A stretch of 40,142 bases of DNA from a virus: IMG/VR virus record IMGVR_UViG_3300045988_046223, positions 1 through 40,142 of that record. The stretch is one strand, 5' to 3'. Below the pieces are notes generated by a model, which did no database searches, was not told the origin of the DNA, and was given only the letters and a program-made list of their open reading frames with translations. Shown piece by piece: positions 7,909 through 17,019 of this stretch. Numbering within the stretch: the first letter of the stretch is position 1; every line of letters starts with the position of its first letter. Position numbers and translations under genes: made by a program.

Positions 7909-8562
7909 ATGGACTGCAAGATAATTTCAACTGGGAGCCAAGGGAACGCCGTACTCATTCAAAATTCAATACTGATTGATTGCGGCGTTCCATTTTCTCA
8001 GCTGACAGACGATTACAAAAGCTTGAAGCTCGTATTGCTCACACACATCCACGGCGACCACTTCAACCCCGCCACGCTGCGCAGGCTTGCCAGAGAGCGG
8101 CCTACATTGCGTTTTGCGTGTTGTGTTTGGTTATGTGCAGCCCTCGTGAATGCTGGCGTTAAAATGAGCCAGATTGACGTGATACGAACAGAACGCTGGT
8201 ACAACTACAAGAATCTATGCAGAATTAAGGCGCAGGAAACAAAGCATGATGTACAAAATTGCTGCTGGCATATAGAGCTGCCGCAGCCTCCCGTTGAAAG
8301 ATTGTTTTATGCTACCGACACGAGCAATCTGAACGGAATAACAGCCAAAGGCTATAATCTCTATCTCGTCGAAGCCAACTACACAGAAGCGGACATCAAA
8401 GACCGCATAGCCGAGAAGAAAATCAACGGCGAGTATGTGTATGAAAAGCGCGTGATGCGTGAGCATCTAAGTAAAGAGAAAGCCGACGATTGGCTATACC
8501 AGAACATGACAGCGCATTCCGAATACATCTATATGCACTGCCATCAAGAAAAGGACAACTGA
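7909..8562 (+). CDS. Metallo-beta-lactamase-fold hydrolase (possible recombination nuclease)
   Basis: 217 aa with the motif LLTHIHGDHF. Confidence 0.85.
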   Translation: MDCKIISTGSQGNAVLIQNSILIDCGVPFSQLTDDYKSLKLVLLTHIHGDHFNPATLRRLARERPTLRFACCVWLCAALVNAGVKMSQIDVIRTERWYNYKNLCRIKAQETKHDVQNCCWHIELPQPPVERLFYATDTSNLNGITAKGYNLYLVEANYTEADIKDRIAEKKINGEYVYEKRVMREHLSKEKADDWLYQNMTAHSEYIYMHCHQEKDN

Positions 8563-10143: not shown

Positions 10144-10184
10144 TTATGAAACGCATTGAAATCATCACTAAAGGAGATTGTACC

Positions 10185-10850
10185 GTGAAAGTATTAGTTG
10201 CCTGTGAAGAATCGCAGACAGTCTGCAAGGCGTTCCGAGAACGCGGACATGAAGCGTACAGCTGTGACATCCAGGAACCGTCTGGTGGACACCCGGAATG
10301 GCATATTTTAGGCGATGCCATGAAAGCAATCGAGGGGGGGCAAATCGTAACGATGGACGGCAAAACGCACGAAATAAGAAAATGGGATTTGCTTATCGCG
10401 CATCCGCCTTGCACATACCTAACTGTTACCGGGAATCGCTGGTTTGATATTTCACGGTATGGCGGAAAAGCGGTTCAACGTTACAAAGACCGCGAAGAAG
10501 CCGCCGATTTCTTTATGCGGTTTGTTAAATGTAACTCCCCAAAAGTCGCTATTGAAAACCCTATTGGATATATGTCAACAGCATATCAAAAACCAACTCA
10601 AATTATTCATCCGTATATGTTTGGCGCCCCAGCAAGAAAAGCAACCTGTTTATGGCTGAAGGGTCTACCGAAACTAATACCAACCGATATAGTAGAGCCT
10701 GAGATTATTCACTACAAAAACGGTAACGGCACAGATAATCCGTGGCACATGGAAACTATGAAATTGCCACCAAAGGAGAGAGCAAAGGAGCGAAGCAAAA
10801 CCTTTCCCGGTATCGCCGCCGCAATGGCAGAACAGTGGGGCAGTTTATGA
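10185..10850 (+). CDS. C5-cytosine-methyltransferase-like protein lacking an obvious SAM-binding glycine loop
   Basis: GTG 10185 follows an AAAGGAG SD; ATG 10146 is an alternative start. Motifs present: HPPCTYL (PC-like), AIENP (ENV-like) and FPGIAAAMAEQW (motif X-like). Confidence 0.6.
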   Translation: MKVLVACEESQTVCKAFRERGHEAYSCDIQEPSGGHPEWHILGDAMKAIEGGQIVTMDGKTHEIRKWDLLIAHPPCTYLTVTGNRWFDISRYGGKAVQRYKDREEAADFFMRFVKCNSPKVAIENPIGYMSTAYQKPTQIIHPYMFGAPARKATCLWLKGLPKLIPTDIVEPEIIHYKNGNGTDNPWHMETMKLPPKERAKERSKTFPGIAAAMAEQWGSL

Positions 10851-12262: not shown

Positions 12263-12937
12263 ATGGACGCAGTTGAATTTTTCCAGACGGTAAACAGGTT
12301 ATGCAAAAATCAAATATGCGCGGAATGTCCCATTTGTAAAAAGGGCATGATTAAGGATATGTGTATGGTCAGGCGCACGGTTATGCTCGGCGACGCTTCA
12401 GTTGAAAGCATTGAGAAAATGATTTCAATTGTCGAACAATGGGCAAAAGACAACCCCGTCAAGACCCGCAATTTCGCCGTTGAAAGTTTCCGGGCACTTA
12501 TCAAAGCAGAACCTACCGTGACCCCGTCGCCTGTCTACGCAAAGAGAGTCTTATTAGATCGGGAGGTTCGGCACGACCTGCAAAATGCGTTTCCGAAAGC
12601 GTTTTTAAATTTGCGTTTGGAGCTGATCGCTTACCCAGCCCGCAACACCACCGTACCGCTGTACGGTGCGGACACGCTTGACGAACTGAATGCCCGGATT
12701 ATTGAATGGTGCAGCCGTGAAGCCTGTAAGTCCAACAGTCCGGCAAGTATGAAATACCATCTGAACGGCATAAACCAGTTCTGCCACACAGACTTTACCC
12801 GTGACGGCATGGAATATATCTATACTAATCTGGGCAACGGTATCAACCATGATCTGTGCCTGCGCTTTGTCGGTGAAATGGACTTTAATCTGAACAAGCT
12901 GAAACACGAGATTGAGAAAATGGAGAAGCCGACATGA
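12263..12937 (+). CDS. Hypothetical protein
   Basis: 224 aa after an AAGGAG SD, with a Cys-rich N-terminal segment. Confidence 0.7.
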   Translation: MDAVEFFQTVNRLCKNQICAECPICKKGMIKDMCMVRRTVMLGDASVESIEKMISIVEQWAKDNPVKTRNFAVESFRALIKAEPTVTPSPVYAKRVLLDREVRHDLQNAFPKAFLNLRLELIAYPARNTTVPLYGADTLDELNARIIEWCSREACKSNSPASMKYHLNGINQFCHTDFTRDGMEYIYTNLGNGINHDLCLRFVGEMDFNLNKLKHEIEKMEKPT

Positions 12938-13368
12938 ACAGCGCCGTCTTTTACTCCAGTAAAACCGATATGTGGGCAACGCCGCAGGATTTCTTCGATG
13001 CCCTCGACGCCGAATTCCATTTCACGCTGGATGCCTGCGCAGTCAAGGAGAATGCAAAGTGCGAGGCCTACTATACCCCAGAGCAAGACGGCCTTGACCA
13101 GCCTTGGACAGGCCGAGTTTGGTGTAATCCACCATACGGGCGGAACGTTGGCCAGTGGGTCAAAAAGGCCCACGACACTGCTTCTGGGGGGGGATTTGTT
13201 GTTATGCTACTGCCTGCCCGCACTGATACACGCTGGTTTCACGATTACATCTATGGCAAAACGGAAGTCAGGTTTATCAAAGGTCGCTTGAAATTTGGCA
13301 GTTGTCAAAACGCGGCCCCGTTTCCAAGCATGGTTGTAATTTTCGGAGGTGAACGCAAAAATGAGTAG
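12934..13368 (+). CDS. Phage Dam-like N6-adenine DNA methyltransferase
   Basis: 144 aa with FTLDACA and WCNPPYGR (NPPY catalytic motif). Confidence 0.85.
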   Translation: MNSAVFYSSKTDMWATPQDFFDALDAEFHFTLDACAVKENAKCEAYYTPEQDGLDQPWTGRVWCNPPYGRNVGQWVKKAHDTASGGGFVVMLLPARTDTRWFHDYIYGKTEVRFIKGRLKFGSCQNAAPFPSMVVIFGGERKNE

Positions 13369-13555: not shown

Positions 13556-13887
13556 GCACAACAATAGGCTGCCCGATTCCCGGCGCAAGCCAGCCGAAAG
13601 AACAAAGAAGATACATTGACAGGCCGATGCGGCTCATTGACGCAAGGGAAGTTATGATTGCCGTTTTTAACGCAATTGAGATGGACGAGGACGAATACAA
13701 CGCTATAAAAGCGGAAGTGGACGAGATACCTACCATCGACCCCGAATCCCTGCGGCCTACGGCACATTGGATAAGCGATAGCGGCGGAAGCACAAATGTT
13801 GTATGTTCACACTGTAATGCAATTTCTTTCGCTGCTTATAATTTTTGCCCGGAGTGCGGCAAAAGGATGGTGAGCGCAAATGAGTGA
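13552..13887 (+). CDS. Hypothetical protein with C-terminal zinc ribbon
   Basis: 111 aa with CSHC...CPEC. Confidence 0.65.
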   Translation: MSTTIGCPIPGASQPKEQRRYIDRPMRLIDAREVMIAVFNAIEMDEDEYNAIKAEVDEIPTIDPESLRPTAHWISDSGGSTNVVCSHCNAISFAAYNFCPECGKRMVSANE

Positions 13888-13945
13888 ATGGATAAGCGTT
13901 AAAGACAGGCTGCCACTCCCTGAACCCCCGGAGGCGACCCCATGA
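13880..13945 (+). pseudogene. 21-codon stub resembling the N-terminus of DUF551-type phage proteins
   Basis: Encodes MSEWISVKDRLPLPEPPEATP followed by a stop. The WISVKDRLP start is typical of DUF551 proteins (from memory). ATGA overlaps on both sides. Confidence 0.3.
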
Positions 13946-14130
13946 CAAAACAGCAGCTAGTTGATGAATACGCCCGCAAACATCTTTGCGCGACATGCGA
14001 GTGGAAGAATGGCGATATTTGCACGCTGCCGCGCTGCATGAAACTGGAAGAGAGGAGATACAATGACCAGAGAAGAATTCAACCAAAAGAAAGTGTGGCT
14101 ATGGAGATACCAACGCAGCAGGAATCATGA
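13942..14130 (+). CDS. Small Cys-rich hypothetical protein
   Basis: 62 aa. It overlaps the next gene by 68 nt, so its end and its reality are uncertain. Confidence 0.4.
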   Translation: MTKQQLVDEYARKHLCATCEWKNGDICTLPRCMKLEERRYNDQRRIQPKESVAMEIPTQQES

Positions 14131-14494
14131 ACGACAGCTGCGCCAGCAGATACAAAGCGAACGTGAACGGGCAACAGCGACCACTAAAGCATTATCCCCC
14201 GTGGTGGTGTCTGCTGGCGGTAAAAATAAAATCGAGGATGCCGTTTGCAGAATCATGGAGCGTCAGGAAGCTCTATACAAGCAGATTATTGAAACCGAAA
14301 TGCAAAGGGAAGAAATCGAAACCGCAATAAACTCTGTTCAAGACCAAATGCAGCGGGACGTTCTGCGGGAGCGGTATATTGTCGGCACCCCGTATTGGTG
14401 GAAAATTGCGATAAATCTAAATATTTCCGAGCGATGGGCAAAGAAATTACACCGCGCTGCAATTGAAAATCTGTGCACTCCAGTTCACTTTTAA
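14063..14494 (+). CDS. Late-gene regulator with sigma-70 region-4-like HTH (RinA/ArpU-type position)
   Basis: 143 aa after a GAGAGGAG SD. The C-terminus QRDVLRERYIVGTPYWWKIAINLNISERWAKKLHRAAIENL is region-4-like. It is the last gene before the packaging module. Confidence 0.7.
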   Translation: MTREEFNQKKVWLWRYQRSRNHERQLRQQIQSERERATATTKALSPVVVSAGGKNKIEDAVCRIMERQEALYKQIIETEMQREEIETAINSVQDQMQRDVLRERYIVGTPYWWKIAINLNISERWAKKLHRAAIENLCTPVHF

Positions 14495-14834
14495 CCTGCT
14501 ATTATAGATATGCTGGATGATGTAGGAACGGGGCAGCCTACGGTATAGCGAAAACCTCCTTTCTTTACCATTTTCATTTCAATTCTCCTGTTTTCATAGC
14601 TGGCAGCCGGGAAAGACCGGCATTTTATTTGCTGCATAGCTGACCATTTTGGTGACGTTACCAAGATGGTATGAGCGCTGCGTTCCAAAGCAACGGCGCG
14701 GCAAAGGTGCAAGACCTATGTGCAGCACCAACGCCGATGATGCTGGTAAATAGGCAAGTGCAAGCGCATTCCGTTCCCAGCTAGGCAACCACCGCAAGCC
14801 TACTAACAGTGCGTAACCTGCGGGGTTTTTATAT

Positions 14835-14892
14835 GCCCTTGTAGCTCAATGGCAAGAGCCTTGGTGTGCCGGTTCAAGTCCGGCTGAGGGCA
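14835..14892 (+). ncRNA. tRNA-like module lacking the anticodon arm
   Basis: - Acceptor stem 14835-41 / 14885-91 (7 bp, including 2 G-U pairs).
- TA at the positions of nucleotides 8-9.
- D stem GCTC/GAGC with loop AATGGCAA.
- 8-nt linker in place of the anticodon arm.
- T stem GCCGG/CCGGC with loop TTCAAGT.
- Discriminator A. Confidence 0.6.
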
Positions 14893-15283
14893 AAGGCTGG
14901 GTCGCTCCCACCGGTGAAAGCCCGGCGTAGGAAACGCGATAGATAACTGACACACCGGAAGAGCGACGGTGCACAGCCCACTACGAGAGGGCGCATACCC
15001 GATTGCACACCGATTTTGAAAGCGGAGAAGTTCTGGGACGTTTTTACGGTGACATCGAGAAAACCGTTCGGCATCTGCTTGTGCGGACTCCGTTACTGAC
15101 GCAGTTACGCATCGCCGGAACCCATAATATCAAAGCAGAGACCGCGACCAGCGGACGGGATATAAATAACGCTGGATTACGTTGCGGATTTGCTCCCCGC
15201 AACGGGTGAGGTCGGCACAGCATACACCGACAGGGCGGGAACGCGCTTTTCCTCCGGCGCAAAGGGGTTTAGGGGGAATATAA

Positions 15284-15309
15284 GCCTACACAAATTGTGT
15301 GGGCTTTTT
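15284..15309 (+). terminator. Intrinsic terminator just upstream of terS
   Basis: GCCTACACA aat TGTGTGGGC (9 bp, one G-U) followed by TTTTT. Confidence 0.7.
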
Positions 15310-15332
15310 GTGTTGTAAGGCGAGGTGATAAA

Positions 15333-15758
15333 GTGGCATCAAGAAAAAATCCGGTGGGCGCACCACCTAAATACAGAAGCGTAAAGGCAATGCAAGAAAA
15401 GATTGATGCCTACTTTGAAGCCTGCAAAGGACAGCCGTTCGTAGACGATAACGGCGAACCGATGAGAAATAAAAACGGCTATATCATCTATGACGATAAA
15501 AAGCCACCTACTGTGACAGGATTGGCGCTTGCACTTGGTTTTGCATCAAGGCAGGCTCTTTTGAATTACCAAAATAAACCAGAGTTCAATGACACGATTA
15601 CGCGTGCAAAGACCCGTTGTGAACAGTATGCCGAAGAAAGACTGTATGACAAAGACGGCTCAGGCGGCGCACAGTTCAGCTTGCGGGCAAATTTCGGATG
15701 GCAGGATAAGCCGGAACAACAGCAGGATAGCGAGGTGCTAATCATAGATGACTTGTAA
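15333..15758 (+). CDS. terS: Terminase small subunit
   Basis: GTG 15333 follows a GAGGTGA SD. It has an HTH-like segment (PPTVTGLALALGFASRQALLNYQ) and lies directly upstream of terL. Confidence 0.8.
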   Translation: MASRKNPVGAPPKYRSVKAMQEKIDAYFEACKGQPFVDDNGEPMRNKNGYIIYDDKKPPTVTGLALALGFASRQALLNYQNKPEFNDTITRAKTRCEQYAEERLYDKDGSGGAQFSLRANFGWQDKPEQQQDSEVLIIDDL

Positions 15759-17019
15759 GCTATCTGGCGTTGTTTCCCCTTGCTTCGCAAAAGTCCACCG
15801 TGAAATCAAGGAAGATAATGTAAAAGAGCTTGTCGCAAAGGGCGGGCGCGGCAGTACAAAATCCAGCTATATTAGCATAGAGCTAATTTTGCAGCTGCTA
15901 AAGCATCCGCAATGCCACGCGGCGGTTTTCCGCAAGGTCGGAAACACGCTGCGCACAAGCGTGTATGCGCAAATCGTCTGGGCAATCAATGAGCTTGGAT
16001 TGCACGACCATTTTCGCTGCACGGTCTCCCCGATGGAATGCACCTATTTGCCGACTGGGCAAAAGGTGCTTTTTTTCGGTGTTGATGACCCAGGAAAAGT
16101 AAAGTCAATCAAAGTGCCGTTTGGTTATATCGGCATTTGCTGGTTTGAAGAGCTTGACCAGTTTGACGGTGAAGAGCAAATCCGAAACGTGGAGCAGTCC
16201 TGCCTGCGCGGCGGTGATTGGTTCATTACGTTCAAGAGCTTCAACCCGCCAGCAATGGCACGGAACTGGGCAAACGGGTACGCACTGAAAGCCCGCGATT
16301 GGAAGCTAATACATCATAGCACCTACAAAACAACGCCCGCAGAATGGCTCGGAGAGCGGTTCCTGGCCGATGCTGAATATTTGCAGCGCACAAACGAAAC
16401 GGCATACCGACACGAGTATTTAGGCGAGGTTGTCGGAAGCGGCACGGCGGTATTTGAGAATCTACGCATTGAGAAAATCACCGATGAACAGATTGCAGGT
16501 TTTGACCGCATCAAGCGCGGCGTGGACTGGGGCTGGTACCCTGACCCGTGGGCATACAATGCGATGCACTATGATGCGGCGCGGCGCACGCTGTACATCT
16601 TCGATGAACTGACACGGCGTAGAACCAGCAACAGAGACACGGCGCAGTTGCTTTTGGATAAAGGGCTGACGCGTAATGATAAAGTCTGCGCGGATAGCGC
16701 CGAGCCAAAATCCATTGCCGACTATAACAAGTACGGCGTAAAAACATTCCCTGCCCGCAAAGGACCGAAATCGGTTCGATACGGCACAAAGTGGCTGCAA
16801 ATGCTGGAAGCTATTGTCATTGACCCGGAACGTTGCCCGGACACTGCAAAGGAATTCAGCGAGTACGAGTACGAGCGAGACGCGAAAACGGGGGAAGTGC
16901 TGGAAGGCTACCCGGATTTGAACAACCATCACATTGACGCGGTGCGGTATGCGATGGAAAGCACAGCAAATAAAGCCGGAGACAATACGGCAATGAAGTA
17001 TCAAAGCATTTACAGATAG
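15748..17019 (+). CDS. terL: Terminase large subunit (PBSX/Terminase_3-like)
   Basis: 423 aa with a Walker-A-like AKGGRGSTKSS and a nuclease-half acidic motif near the C-terminus. Confidence 0.92.
   Translation: MTCKLSGVVSPCFAKVHREIKEDNVKELVAKGGRGSTKSSYISIELILQLLKHPQCHAAVFRKVGNTLRTSVYAQIVWAINELGLHDHFRCTVSPMECTYLPTGQKVLFFGVDDPGKVKSIKVPFGYIGICWFEELDQFDGEEQIRNVEQSCLRGGDWFITFKSFNPPAMARNWANGYALKARDWKLIHHSTYKTTPAEWLGERFLADAEYLQRTNETAYRHEYLGEVVGSGTAVFENLRIEKITDEQIAGFDRIKRGVDWGWYPDPWAYNAMHYDAARRTLYIFDELTRRRTSNRDTAQLLLDKGLTRNDKVCADSAEPKSIADYNKYGVKTFPARKGPKSVRYGTKWLQMLEAIVIDPERCPDTAKEFSEYEYERDAKTGEVLEGYPDLNNHHIDAVRYAMESTANKAGDNTAMKYQSIYR

Follow-up and report, generated by a model that had tools for sequence, protein, structure and literature searches.

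The DNA of IMG/VR virus record IMGVR_UViG_3300045988_046223 (positions 1 to 40,142, analysed over its full length of 40,142 nucleotides and referred to here as the window) encodes on its plus strand a 58-nt tRNA-like element without an anticodon arm, designated T1, in the leader between the gene for an ArpU-family late regulator and terS, the first gene of the packaging operon. The pattern of substitutions in homologous phages shows T1 to be under selection as a tRNA-shaped RNA. In the reading that we favour, to which we give an even chance of being correct, T1 would be a punctuation module that host RNase P and RNase Z cut out of the late transcript. The element is probably one family of a wider phage class of tRNA-like processing or mimic elements.

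T1 (14835..14892, plus strand), delineated by reading of the sequence, by the Rfam tRNA model and by covariation, consists of a 7-bp acceptor stem (14835-14841/14885-14891, including the wobble pairs U6.G67 and G7.U66), the spacer nucleotides U8 and A9 (14842-14843), a D arm (14844-14859) with the stem GCUC/GAGC (14844-14847/14856-14859) and the D loop AAUGGCAA, an 8-nt linker, CUUGGUGU (14860-14867), in place of the anticodon arm, a T arm (14868-14884) with the stem GCCGG/CCGGC (14868-14872/14880-14884) and the T loop UUCAAGU, and the discriminator A14892. As read from the sequence, the nucleotides of the elbow are all there: U8, A14, A15 with a U at the position of 48, G18 and G19, the pair G53-C61, U54, U55, C56 and A58. 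This is the fold that an initial annotation of the window had proposed; the sequence given there is exact, and the Rfam tRNA model RF00005 matches the element from end to end with 40.9 bits (gathering score 29, E = 2e-5 for the whole window), 4 nt standing for 18 anticodon-arm positions of the model. T1 cannot decode, as had been claimed, because the anticodon stem-loop is gone and the linker takes its place, and the predicted lack of a tRNA call was borne out by ARAGORN, which makes zero tRNA or tmRNA calls in the whole window. Judged as a canonical tRNA, T1 has the acceptor stem and discriminator, the D and T arms with their elbow and a score above the family threshold, and it lacks the 5-bp stem and 7-nt loop of an anticodon arm. 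Since the score exceeds the gathering threshold, automatic Rfam annotation would label this non-decoding element "tRNA". Folding energy taken alone is weak evidence for the fold: with a minimum free energy (MFE) of -24.2 kcal/mol, T1 reaches z = -1.85 and is matched by 8 of 200 shuffles. The MFE structure retains the acceptor and T arms and swaps the D stem for another hairpin, an alternative that was rejected, as across homologues it has several broken pairs and no compensatory change, whereas the D stem has one (GCUC/GAGC to GCUA/UAGC).

Homologous loci were gathered by pattern scans of IMG/VR, using patterns for T1 (91 loci), for the core of D12-methyl, an RNA motif near the 3' end of the leader (49 loci), and for C1, a conserved block that follows T1 (at least 119 viral loci). 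The collection holds 95 copies of T1 on gut-phage contigs, in 22 distinct variants, with 64 copies identical to that of the window. In an alignment of the 22 variants, 99.1% of the stem cells are paired (98.7% in the acceptor stem), and 4 of the 16 pairs have changed on both sides, namely acceptor pair 2:71 (CG/AU), D-stem pair 13:22 (CG/AU) and two T-stem pairs. None of 500 shuffles attains any of the five measures, and in slid controls 24-55% are paired. The loops and the linker are nearly invariant, like the stems. Pairwise identity within the leader is highest in T1, at 0.97, a value partly inflated because many loci were picked by the T1 pattern, and is 0.74-0.76 in the variable flanks. 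High conservation is also seen in samples chosen in other ways: among the loci selected by D12-methyl, T1 is present in 28 of 49 and identical in 21 of the 28, and in six long contigs selected by the ArpU protein an identical T1 is found in five, the sixth carrying another tRNA-like type. A covariance model of T1 gives 90.6 bits both on the window and on five of the six contigs picked solely by the neighbouring ArpU protein. Conservation in homologous phages was a check that the initial annotation had proposed for its three stems, and all three are kept, with compensatory changes, among the 22 variants from 95 copies. An unconserved remnant of a tRNA gene, the outcome that it had named as contrary to its view, was not found, because the stems are conserved in homologous phages; T1 is conserved in samples independent of it, and its pairing is maintained at the RNA level.

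T1 is also tightly spaced from its downstream neighbour. In most of the 95 copies C1 (GCUGGGUC...) begins 3 nt past the discriminator; in the window it occupies 14896..14947 (plus strand, defined by the pattern scan in at least 119 viral loci) and is separated from T1 by the spacer AAG (14893..14895), located between the discriminator and C1 at the site where a CCA end would be. The commonest 3-nt spacers are CAU (47), AAG (16), AGC (9) and CGU (7), and a CCA is encoded after the discriminator in just 3 of the 95 copies. The position immediately before T1, U14834 in the window, is T in 95 of 95. In a natural deletion variant (L036), T1 and the two C1 hairpins, H1 and H2, are retained right before the ribosome-binding site of terS.

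When C1 instead of T1 served as the anchor (about 122 loci, among the matches listed), a tRNA-shaped element was found in the slot directly 5' of C1 in nearly all of them, T1 being the commonest and most being unable to decode. Twenty-eight of the loci listed hold tRNAs that ARAGORN can call (Trp-CCA, Thr-UGU, Gly-UCC and an odd 86-nt form labelled "His"), and the remaining loci hold about eight further non-callable types, with good acceptor and T arms and with a tetraloop hairpin or a non-canonical stretch at the site of the anticodon arm. Three relatives (L119, L121 and L158) carry an ARAGORN-callable tRNA-Thr that has the upstream flank of T1 (...CUCACAAAyGAUGACAA...CCGCACAU, then G) as well as the same D arm and T loop. 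Comparison of these loci shows T1 to be a derivative of a phage tRNA-Thr(UGU) gene, with the anticodon stem-loop replaced by 2-3 nt. Some relatives have a longer array, in which a sigma-A promoter is followed by tRNA-Met, a module like element A (the second tRNA-like module of the window, described below), tRNA-Thr, the slot element, C1 and D12-methyl; in L121 (12100-13100, minus strand) and also in L158, L167 and L139, the promoter is of the form TTGAAA-17-TATAAT, and the elements of the array are about 300-360 nt apart. In those relatives that have a real tRNA at this position, tRNA-processing enzymes must cut the leader at that site.

T1-like copies without C1 or D12-methyl occur in two other phage contexts, in each case 3' of a hairpin and 5' of a gene. 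In one, the copy follows a hairpin plus UAUUUUUAU and lies about 65 nt before a gene for an HNH endonuclease; in the other, it has an A2-U71 pair, an altered T stem and an encoded CCA, with a long hairpin 5' of it and a scaffold-like gene about 120 nt 3' of it. The same architecture was then sought with a generic pattern, in which the common 3' half of the D arm is followed 3-14 nt on by the T-arm consensus. At least 120 viral loci from many biomes match it, and parsing for complete elements (at least 6 of 7 acceptor pairs, 3 of 4 D pairs and 4 of 5 T pairs) yielded at least 74 cloverleaves minus the anticodon arm among the matches listed. Their acceptor sequences are unrelated, and their linkers cluster at 8-9 nt, laid out as position 26, 2-4 nt and a typical 5-nt variable loop. 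A second scan, with gaps of 15-22 nt, gave few complete elements with 12-17-nt linkers among the matches listed, the counts climbing at 18-19 nt, where the elements have shortened anticodon arms; both scans give lower bounds, so that the shapes of the two distributions are comparable and their totals are not. ARAGORN calls none of the 74 elements, and three of the 74, among the matches listed, encode CCA. Another tRNA is present in 22 of the 74 loci, on the same strand in 20 of the 22.

The placement of the generic elements was evaluated on 61 distinct ones. A stable hairpin (MFE <= -15 kcal/mol) lies in the 45 nt upstream of 26% of them, compared with 5% of shuffled sequences and 5% for the 45 nt downstream. 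The next open reading frame (ORF) on the same strand starts within 40 nt in 15 of 54 cases versus 5 of 49 on the opposite strand, and the end of the preceding ORF is no more than 40 nt away in 15 of 56 versus 2 of 51. Genes 3' of the elements include TerS-like and portal-like ones; L232, L197, L214 and L249 (among L192-L311) are example loci. In an unrelated AT-rich phage (L002), a different anticodon-arm-less element follows 3 nt after a real tRNA-Arg. The cultured Bacteroides phage BF1-TP2 carries an unannotated 61-nt element after a hairpin (PQ571263.1, about 67159-67219; L431:1194-1254), on which ARAGORN makes no call and which reads GCTCCCT TA GCTC AGATGGCCA GAGC CTTTAGGGTC GCCGG TTCAAGC CCGGC AGGGAGC A. 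About 150 nt upstream of it there seems to be a further module, which combines an acceptor stem with a T arm and has the 3' end ...GGCTACCACA. These observations raise the idea, to which we give somewhat less than an even chance, that anticodon-arm-less tRNA-like elements constitute a widespread and unrecognised class of phage RNA of which T1 is one family, phages having repeatedly stripped tRNAs down to the part recognised by the processing enzymes of the host, in order to punctuate operons or to decoy tRNA-binding factors. Members of such a class tend to be placed with a stable hairpin on one side and a gene start on the other, the gene often being one for packaging or structure. The full-text literature, from whose coverage most subscription journals are absent, yielded no account of phage tRNA-like elements that lack the anticodon arm, and an earlier one may exist.

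In the punctuation reading the leader would be transcribed as a single RNA, and host RNase P would cut it just 5' of T1, at the junction U14834/G14835. RNase Z would cut just 3' of the discriminator A14892; this pathway fits T1 because the element encodes no CCA, and in Bacillota the 3' pathway for CCA-less tRNA precursors is that of RNase Z. The two cuts would take out T1 and split the leader, setting the upstream RNA free and giving the downstream RNA, composed of C1, the hairpin modules, D12-methyl and terS, a new, defined 5' end about 5 nt before H1, which could set the fold or the stability of the late mRNA. The acceptor/T minihelix suffices for RNase P, RNase Z and the CCA-adding enzyme. 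T1 would thus have retained only the parts that these enzymes recognise, the minihelix and the D/T elbow, and lost those needed for decoding. The minihelix, the elbow, the U at -1 in 95 of 95 copies, the tight spacing to C1, the CCA-less trailer and the real tRNAs in the same slot are all consistent with processing, as are the retention of T1 with H1 and H2 in L036 and the placement of T1-like copies, and of many generic elements, after a hairpin and ahead of a gene. Punctuation of this kind, modelled on mascRNA, is what the initial annotation had proposed, and the whole anatomy of T1 agrees with it.

Several observations weigh against such a role. The near-invariance of the T1 loops and of the linker (GGUGU) is not obviously explained by generic punctuation, and the move of T1 into other phage contexts, taken with this invariance, fits a function of the released RNA equally well. 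A tRNA shape is not strictly needed in the slot, which in L154 holds a plain hairpin and in L120 a T arm with a deletion, and in a few loci T1 and C1 are 19-24 nt apart. A sigma-70 promoter scan of 13900-15500 returned no sites, and the extent of the transcript is thus assumed. The hairpin 5' of T1 was discarded as a terminator, the fold of 14731-14834 being not above that of shuffles (z = 0.35). Of the generic elements, 24 of 74 lie inside stop-free stretches of at least 100 codons. The host, too, is a putative one: the closest isolate TerL proteins, at 46-48% identity, are from Blautia and Clostridium phages, which makes a gut member of the Bacillota the probable host. As to the 19-24-nt spacings, an insert of that length, (A)GCATTGCTCATCTGGTAGAAAT, lies between T1 and C1 in L039, L165, L055, L013, L030 and L084, and resembles a D-arm remnant of another tRNA.

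The main alternative, a tentative one that is compatible with processing and in our judgement rather unlikely, is that the released RNA of about 58-61 nt is itself what is selected, as a tRNA mimic or decoy, probably CCA-added, that would bind a factor recognising the tRNA body; candidate partners include a tRNA-targeting defence nuclease or toxin, a tRNA-modifying or CCA-end enzyme and an aminoacyl-tRNA synthetase, all of which it could engage without entering translation. Such a function would account better than punctuation for the near-invariance of loops and linker, in addition to that of the stems, for the occurrence of T1 in at least three unrelated genomic contexts, one with an encoded CCA, and for the exchange of types in the slot. 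At least ten interchangeable tRNA-like types occupy the slot of otherwise similar leaders, a turnover typical of arms-race loci; the normal anticodon loop has been lost independently in several of these types, and the architecture is widespread among unrelated phages. Yet nothing in the window hints at a partner, a decoy would have no need to be tightly linked to a hairpin 5' of it and to a block or gene start 3' of it, and the scarcity of encoded CCA in T1 and among the generic elements listed speaks against it, as does the failure to find such decoys in the same full-text literature. The initial annotation had named, as its second option, a structural mimic of tRNA within a bigger RNA. In that reading T1 would stay uncleaved and act as a domain of a single large and ornate RNA that spans the leader (about 14600-15310), the tRNA shape being a folding or docking module for that RNA or for a multimer of it. 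The leader of about 0.8 kb has no credible ORF, is conserved more widely than the flanking genes and contains covarying hairpin modules; it is organised like the large phage RNA GOLLD, the 5' part being variable, the 3' part conserved and a tRNA slot lying between them, and T1 and C1 are a short, constant distance apart. However, C1 and D12-methyl accompany quite different tRNAs, and the real tRNAs among them need excision to work. T1 also exists without C1 or D12-methyl, the modules between C1 and D12-methyl can be absent, which is ill-suited to one fixed tertiary fold, no covariation ties T1 to other parts of the leader, and the Rfam models of GOLLD and ROOL find no match even at E <= 10. 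We regard this large-RNA model as improbable.

The same data bear on whether T1 has any function as RNA. It clearly arose from a tRNA gene by internal deletion, the breakpoints of the mosaic leader are often at the ends of tRNA-like elements, and the site is upstream of terS, where pac sites can occur; T1 might then be a functionless relic, a tRNA pseudogene kept by linkage, or a feature of the DNA, for instance a linker for recombination between modules or a piece of a pac site. Against this, substitutions keep the pairing in all three stems, with four pairs changed on both sides, and T1 is the best-conserved part of the leader and the majority allele in samples that were not selected on it. 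The same architecture, with a linker of 8-9 nt, recurs in at least 61 unrelated sequences, and the genes downstream of T1 differ between phages. A relic or DNA-level feature is accordingly disfavoured, and we rate it as very improbable.

Several tRNA-like processing signals are known, among them mascRNA at the 3' end of MALAT1, the TMERs of MHV68 (tRNA-like/pre-miRNA) and the t-elements of plant mitochondria. Like T1, these are non-decoding tRNA-like folds with an acceptor/T minihelix and an elbow; each of them forms part of a longer transcript, in which the neighbouring RNA ends are defined by RNase P and/or RNase Z, and the released piece can gain CCA. They are eukaryotic, nuclear or organellar, and their cleavage has been demonstrated, whereas T1 is located in a phage operon leader and its cleavage is predicted; in addition, mascRNA has a shortened anticodon stem-loop, where T1 has an 8-nt linker and no arm. 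With canonical phage tRNAs T1 shares the D arm, T arm, acceptor stem and discriminator, a score above the Rfam threshold, the position of tRNA-Thr(UGU) and the array on the late-gene strand, and it differs from them in having no anticodon arm, no ARAGORN call and no encoded CCA. The tRNA-like domain of tmRNA likewise has an acceptor stem, a T arm and no anticodon, with a reduced D region, but its halves lie about 300 nt apart with the tag reading frame, and it has the G3.U70 pair for charging with alanine; a tmRNA identity was rejected for T1, which is contiguous, has C3-G70 and is negative in the ARAGORN tmRNA search. An Rfam search at E <= 10 gave nothing credible for tmRNA, RNase P RNA or self-cleaving ribozymes, and a single twister-sister match in one relative (13.9 bits, E = 6) was dismissed.

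Among bacterial and phage RNAs, the tRNA-like domain of Mycobacterium smegmatis YrlA, built on a 7-bp acceptor stem, is a substrate of RNase P and has CCA added to it (PMC4201824). It is, like T1, a module that imitates the D/T elbow and the acceptor stem, but it is joined to a Ro60-binding stem and encoded beside rsr, while the acceptor stem of T1 bears free ends, as in tRNA. No Y RNA family is among the Rfam hits, and the window proteins that were scanned (a subset of the ORFs) gave no Ro60/TROVE hit. GOLLD and ROOL are large non-coding RNAs of phages and prophages, located at or near tRNAs (PMC12286853; PMC5737381), and in GOLLD the 5' region varies, the 3' region is conserved and the linker sometimes contains a tRNA (PMC12286853). 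Neither was matched by an Rfam search of 13800-15800 at E <= 10, and the leader studied here differs from both in that its middle is modular and dispensable and its embedded element is usually non-decoding. D12-methyl (RF02950), listed in Rfam as an sRNA gene, is a 64-nt motif of two hairpins; it lies 288 nt 3' of T1 on the same strand, and T1 is not part of it.

The window is a temperate siphovirus-type genome that encodes on its plus strand an integrase, a repressor, an antirepressor, RecT, a DnaD-like protein, SSB, two DNA methyltransferases, the ArpU/DUF1492 regulator, TerS, TerL and an SPP1-type portal. The regulator gene (14063..14494, plus strand; Pfam PF07374 and PHROG transcription regulator families), which encodes an ArpU/DUF1492-family late transcription regulator, forms the 5' border of the leader, and terS, for the small terminase subunit (15333..15758, plus strand; Pfam GP3_package and PHROG terminase small subunit), likely starts with the GTG at 15333, after GAGGUG. 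The 838 nt between the two genes hold no credible ORF and lie on the strand of both, which bears out the placement of T1 in a long non-coding region by the initial annotation. In six metagenomic contigs with an identical ArpU protein, the 650-1570 nt after its gene are nearly free of called genes; the protein is known from metagenomes only, where it is very common, being indexed in 966 blocks of the collection, most of them from assemblies of the human gut. The region 14600-15310 is common to more homologous loci than are the flanking genes. It is a mosaic whose modules are exchanged between phages, with breakpoints often falling at the ends of tRNA-like elements. BLAST with the 841-nt leader, in near and distant modes, found no match in GenBank phages, nor was there one in complete Escherichia coli genomes. 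The 18 matches of the C1 pattern in genome contigs are unrelated, mostly GC-rich and of non-gut origin (soil, sediment, water), and were judged to be chance matches of a GC-rich gapped pattern.

In the early region, a protein with a metallo-beta-lactamase fold is encoded at 7909-8562, right after RecT. RNase Z shares this fold; the position beside RecT suggests a recombination nuclease rather than RNase Z. The two DNA methyltransferase genes of the early region (10146-10850 and 12934-13368), of which one matches PHROG 757 and one is Dam-type (PF05869), are not directly 3' of the D12-methyl motif of the window.

In the 5' part of the leader, a hairpin resembling an intrinsic terminator, GCCGG-GAAAGA-CCGGC followed by AUUUUAUUU (14606..14630, plus strand), found in a terminator scan and conserved in 99 loci, directly precedes element A (14631..14730, plus strand). 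This second tRNA-like module, found in 98 loci and marked by covariation in its acceptor, has a 7-bp acceptor stem (GCUGCAU/GUGCAGC), in which pairs 3 (UA/CG) and 4 (GC/AU) covary across the 98 loci, a hairpin resembling a T arm (AAAGG-UGCAAGA-CCUAU, 14703-14719) and the discriminator A14727, followed by an encoded CCA (14728-14730); NCCA is present in 97 of the 98. Variable hairpins take the place where the D and anticodon arms would be, and the length ranges from 82 to 121 nt across the 98 loci, with a minimal form of about 70 nt in L013. Neither the Rfam tRNA model nor model R1 nor ARAGORN detects element A. Between it and T1 lies a variable spacer (14731..14834, plus strand), which ends in ...CCUGCGGGGUUUUUAUAU and is replaced in relatives by other sequences in a mosaic pattern. 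The AT-rich run 5' of T1 (UUUUAUAU) was rejected as a promoter on inspection of the sequence, as its geometry does not fit.

Downstream of T1, C1 (mean pairwise identity 0.905) contains the hairpins H1 (14898-14901/14907-14910, UGGG-UCGCU-CCCA), which covaries to GGGG/CCCC, and H2 (14911-14914/14922-14925, CCGG-UGAAAGC-CCGG), which covaries to CAGG/CCUG and UCCG/CGGA and is followed by GCGUAGGAAACGCGAUAGAUAAC. The variable hairpin modules that come next (14948..15179, plus strand) are present, absent or exchanged between loci, and in minimal leaders they are wholly absent, C1 to D12-methyl taking up 86-110 nt. Where present, they covary at the level of hairpins (for example ACCG/CGGU to AUCG/CGAU); in global MFE and RNAalifold folds of the leader the sequences are too alike to test long-range pairs, and only hairpin-level covariation was used. 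In the conserved module at 15070-15143, RNAalifold pairs 15074-15080 with 15133-15139, invariant in the nine sequences used: the AAGCAGA located some 55 nt further on may be the pairing partner of AUCUGCUU, in an internal loop at 15074-15080. An alternative version of the module with other stems (CGGCA.../...GCCG versus CCACA.../UGUGG) retains both strings, which suggests a pseudoknot or a three-way junction.

A resemblance of this part of the leader to a group II intron was considered and rejected. The model RF02003 (group-II-D1D4-4) scores 23-27 bits, below its gathering score of 49, on C1 and the next module in five related loci (L116:640-745, L100:2860-2966, L150:2254-2360, L149:809-915 and L130:1228-1330); the variant in the window has no match, and Intron_gpII (D5/D6) was not found anywhere. 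The strings GGUGAAAGyCC and GCAGGyCGyAACGnGA are common to the C1 region and RF02003. A motif of the C1 region, CGCAACGGG, recurs in D12-methyl.

D12-methyl itself (15180..15243, plus strand; RF02950, 92.2 bits against a gathering score of 57) forms the unvarying 3' domain of the leader: all related leaders that were tested contain it, and it always closes the leader, after the optional modules. An intrinsic-terminator-like hairpin of 11 pairs with a U run (15282..15311, plus strand), found in a terminator scan, lies between it and terS in the window; some relatives are without this hairpin, and D12-methyl then abuts the next ribosome-binding site. The gene that comes after the leader, always the first one past the gene for the ArpU-like regulator, can be terS, as in the window, a ParB-N/N6_N4 methyltransferase gene or a TerL-like gene, and the ParB-N/methyltransferase gene that follows the motif in some relatives explains the name "D12-methyl". 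By its position in all these leaders, this orphan motif of Rfam is only the 3'-terminal part of a leader of about 0.7-0.8 kb that is both conserved and modular. A description of D12-methyl as part of a larger leader was not found in the full-text literature, most subscription journals lying outside its coverage.

The motif thereby gains a context, at the end of a leader of about 0.8 kb that is headed by tRNA-like elements and stands ahead of packaging genes, in phages abundant in human gut metagenomes. Because Rfam labels anticodon-arm-less elements "tRNA" and ARAGORN skips them, phage tRNA counts are skewed both ways. If the processing model is true, these phages would split and shape their late transcripts by means of the host enzymes of tRNA maturation, using a mimic that is unable to disturb translation, and T1 would be a counterpart in bacterial viruses to the tRNA punctuation of mitochondria and to MALAT1/mascRNA. 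The recurrence of such elements in unrelated phages raises the question of why tRNA bodies are retained without their anticodons, one that the cultured Bacteroides phage makes testable.

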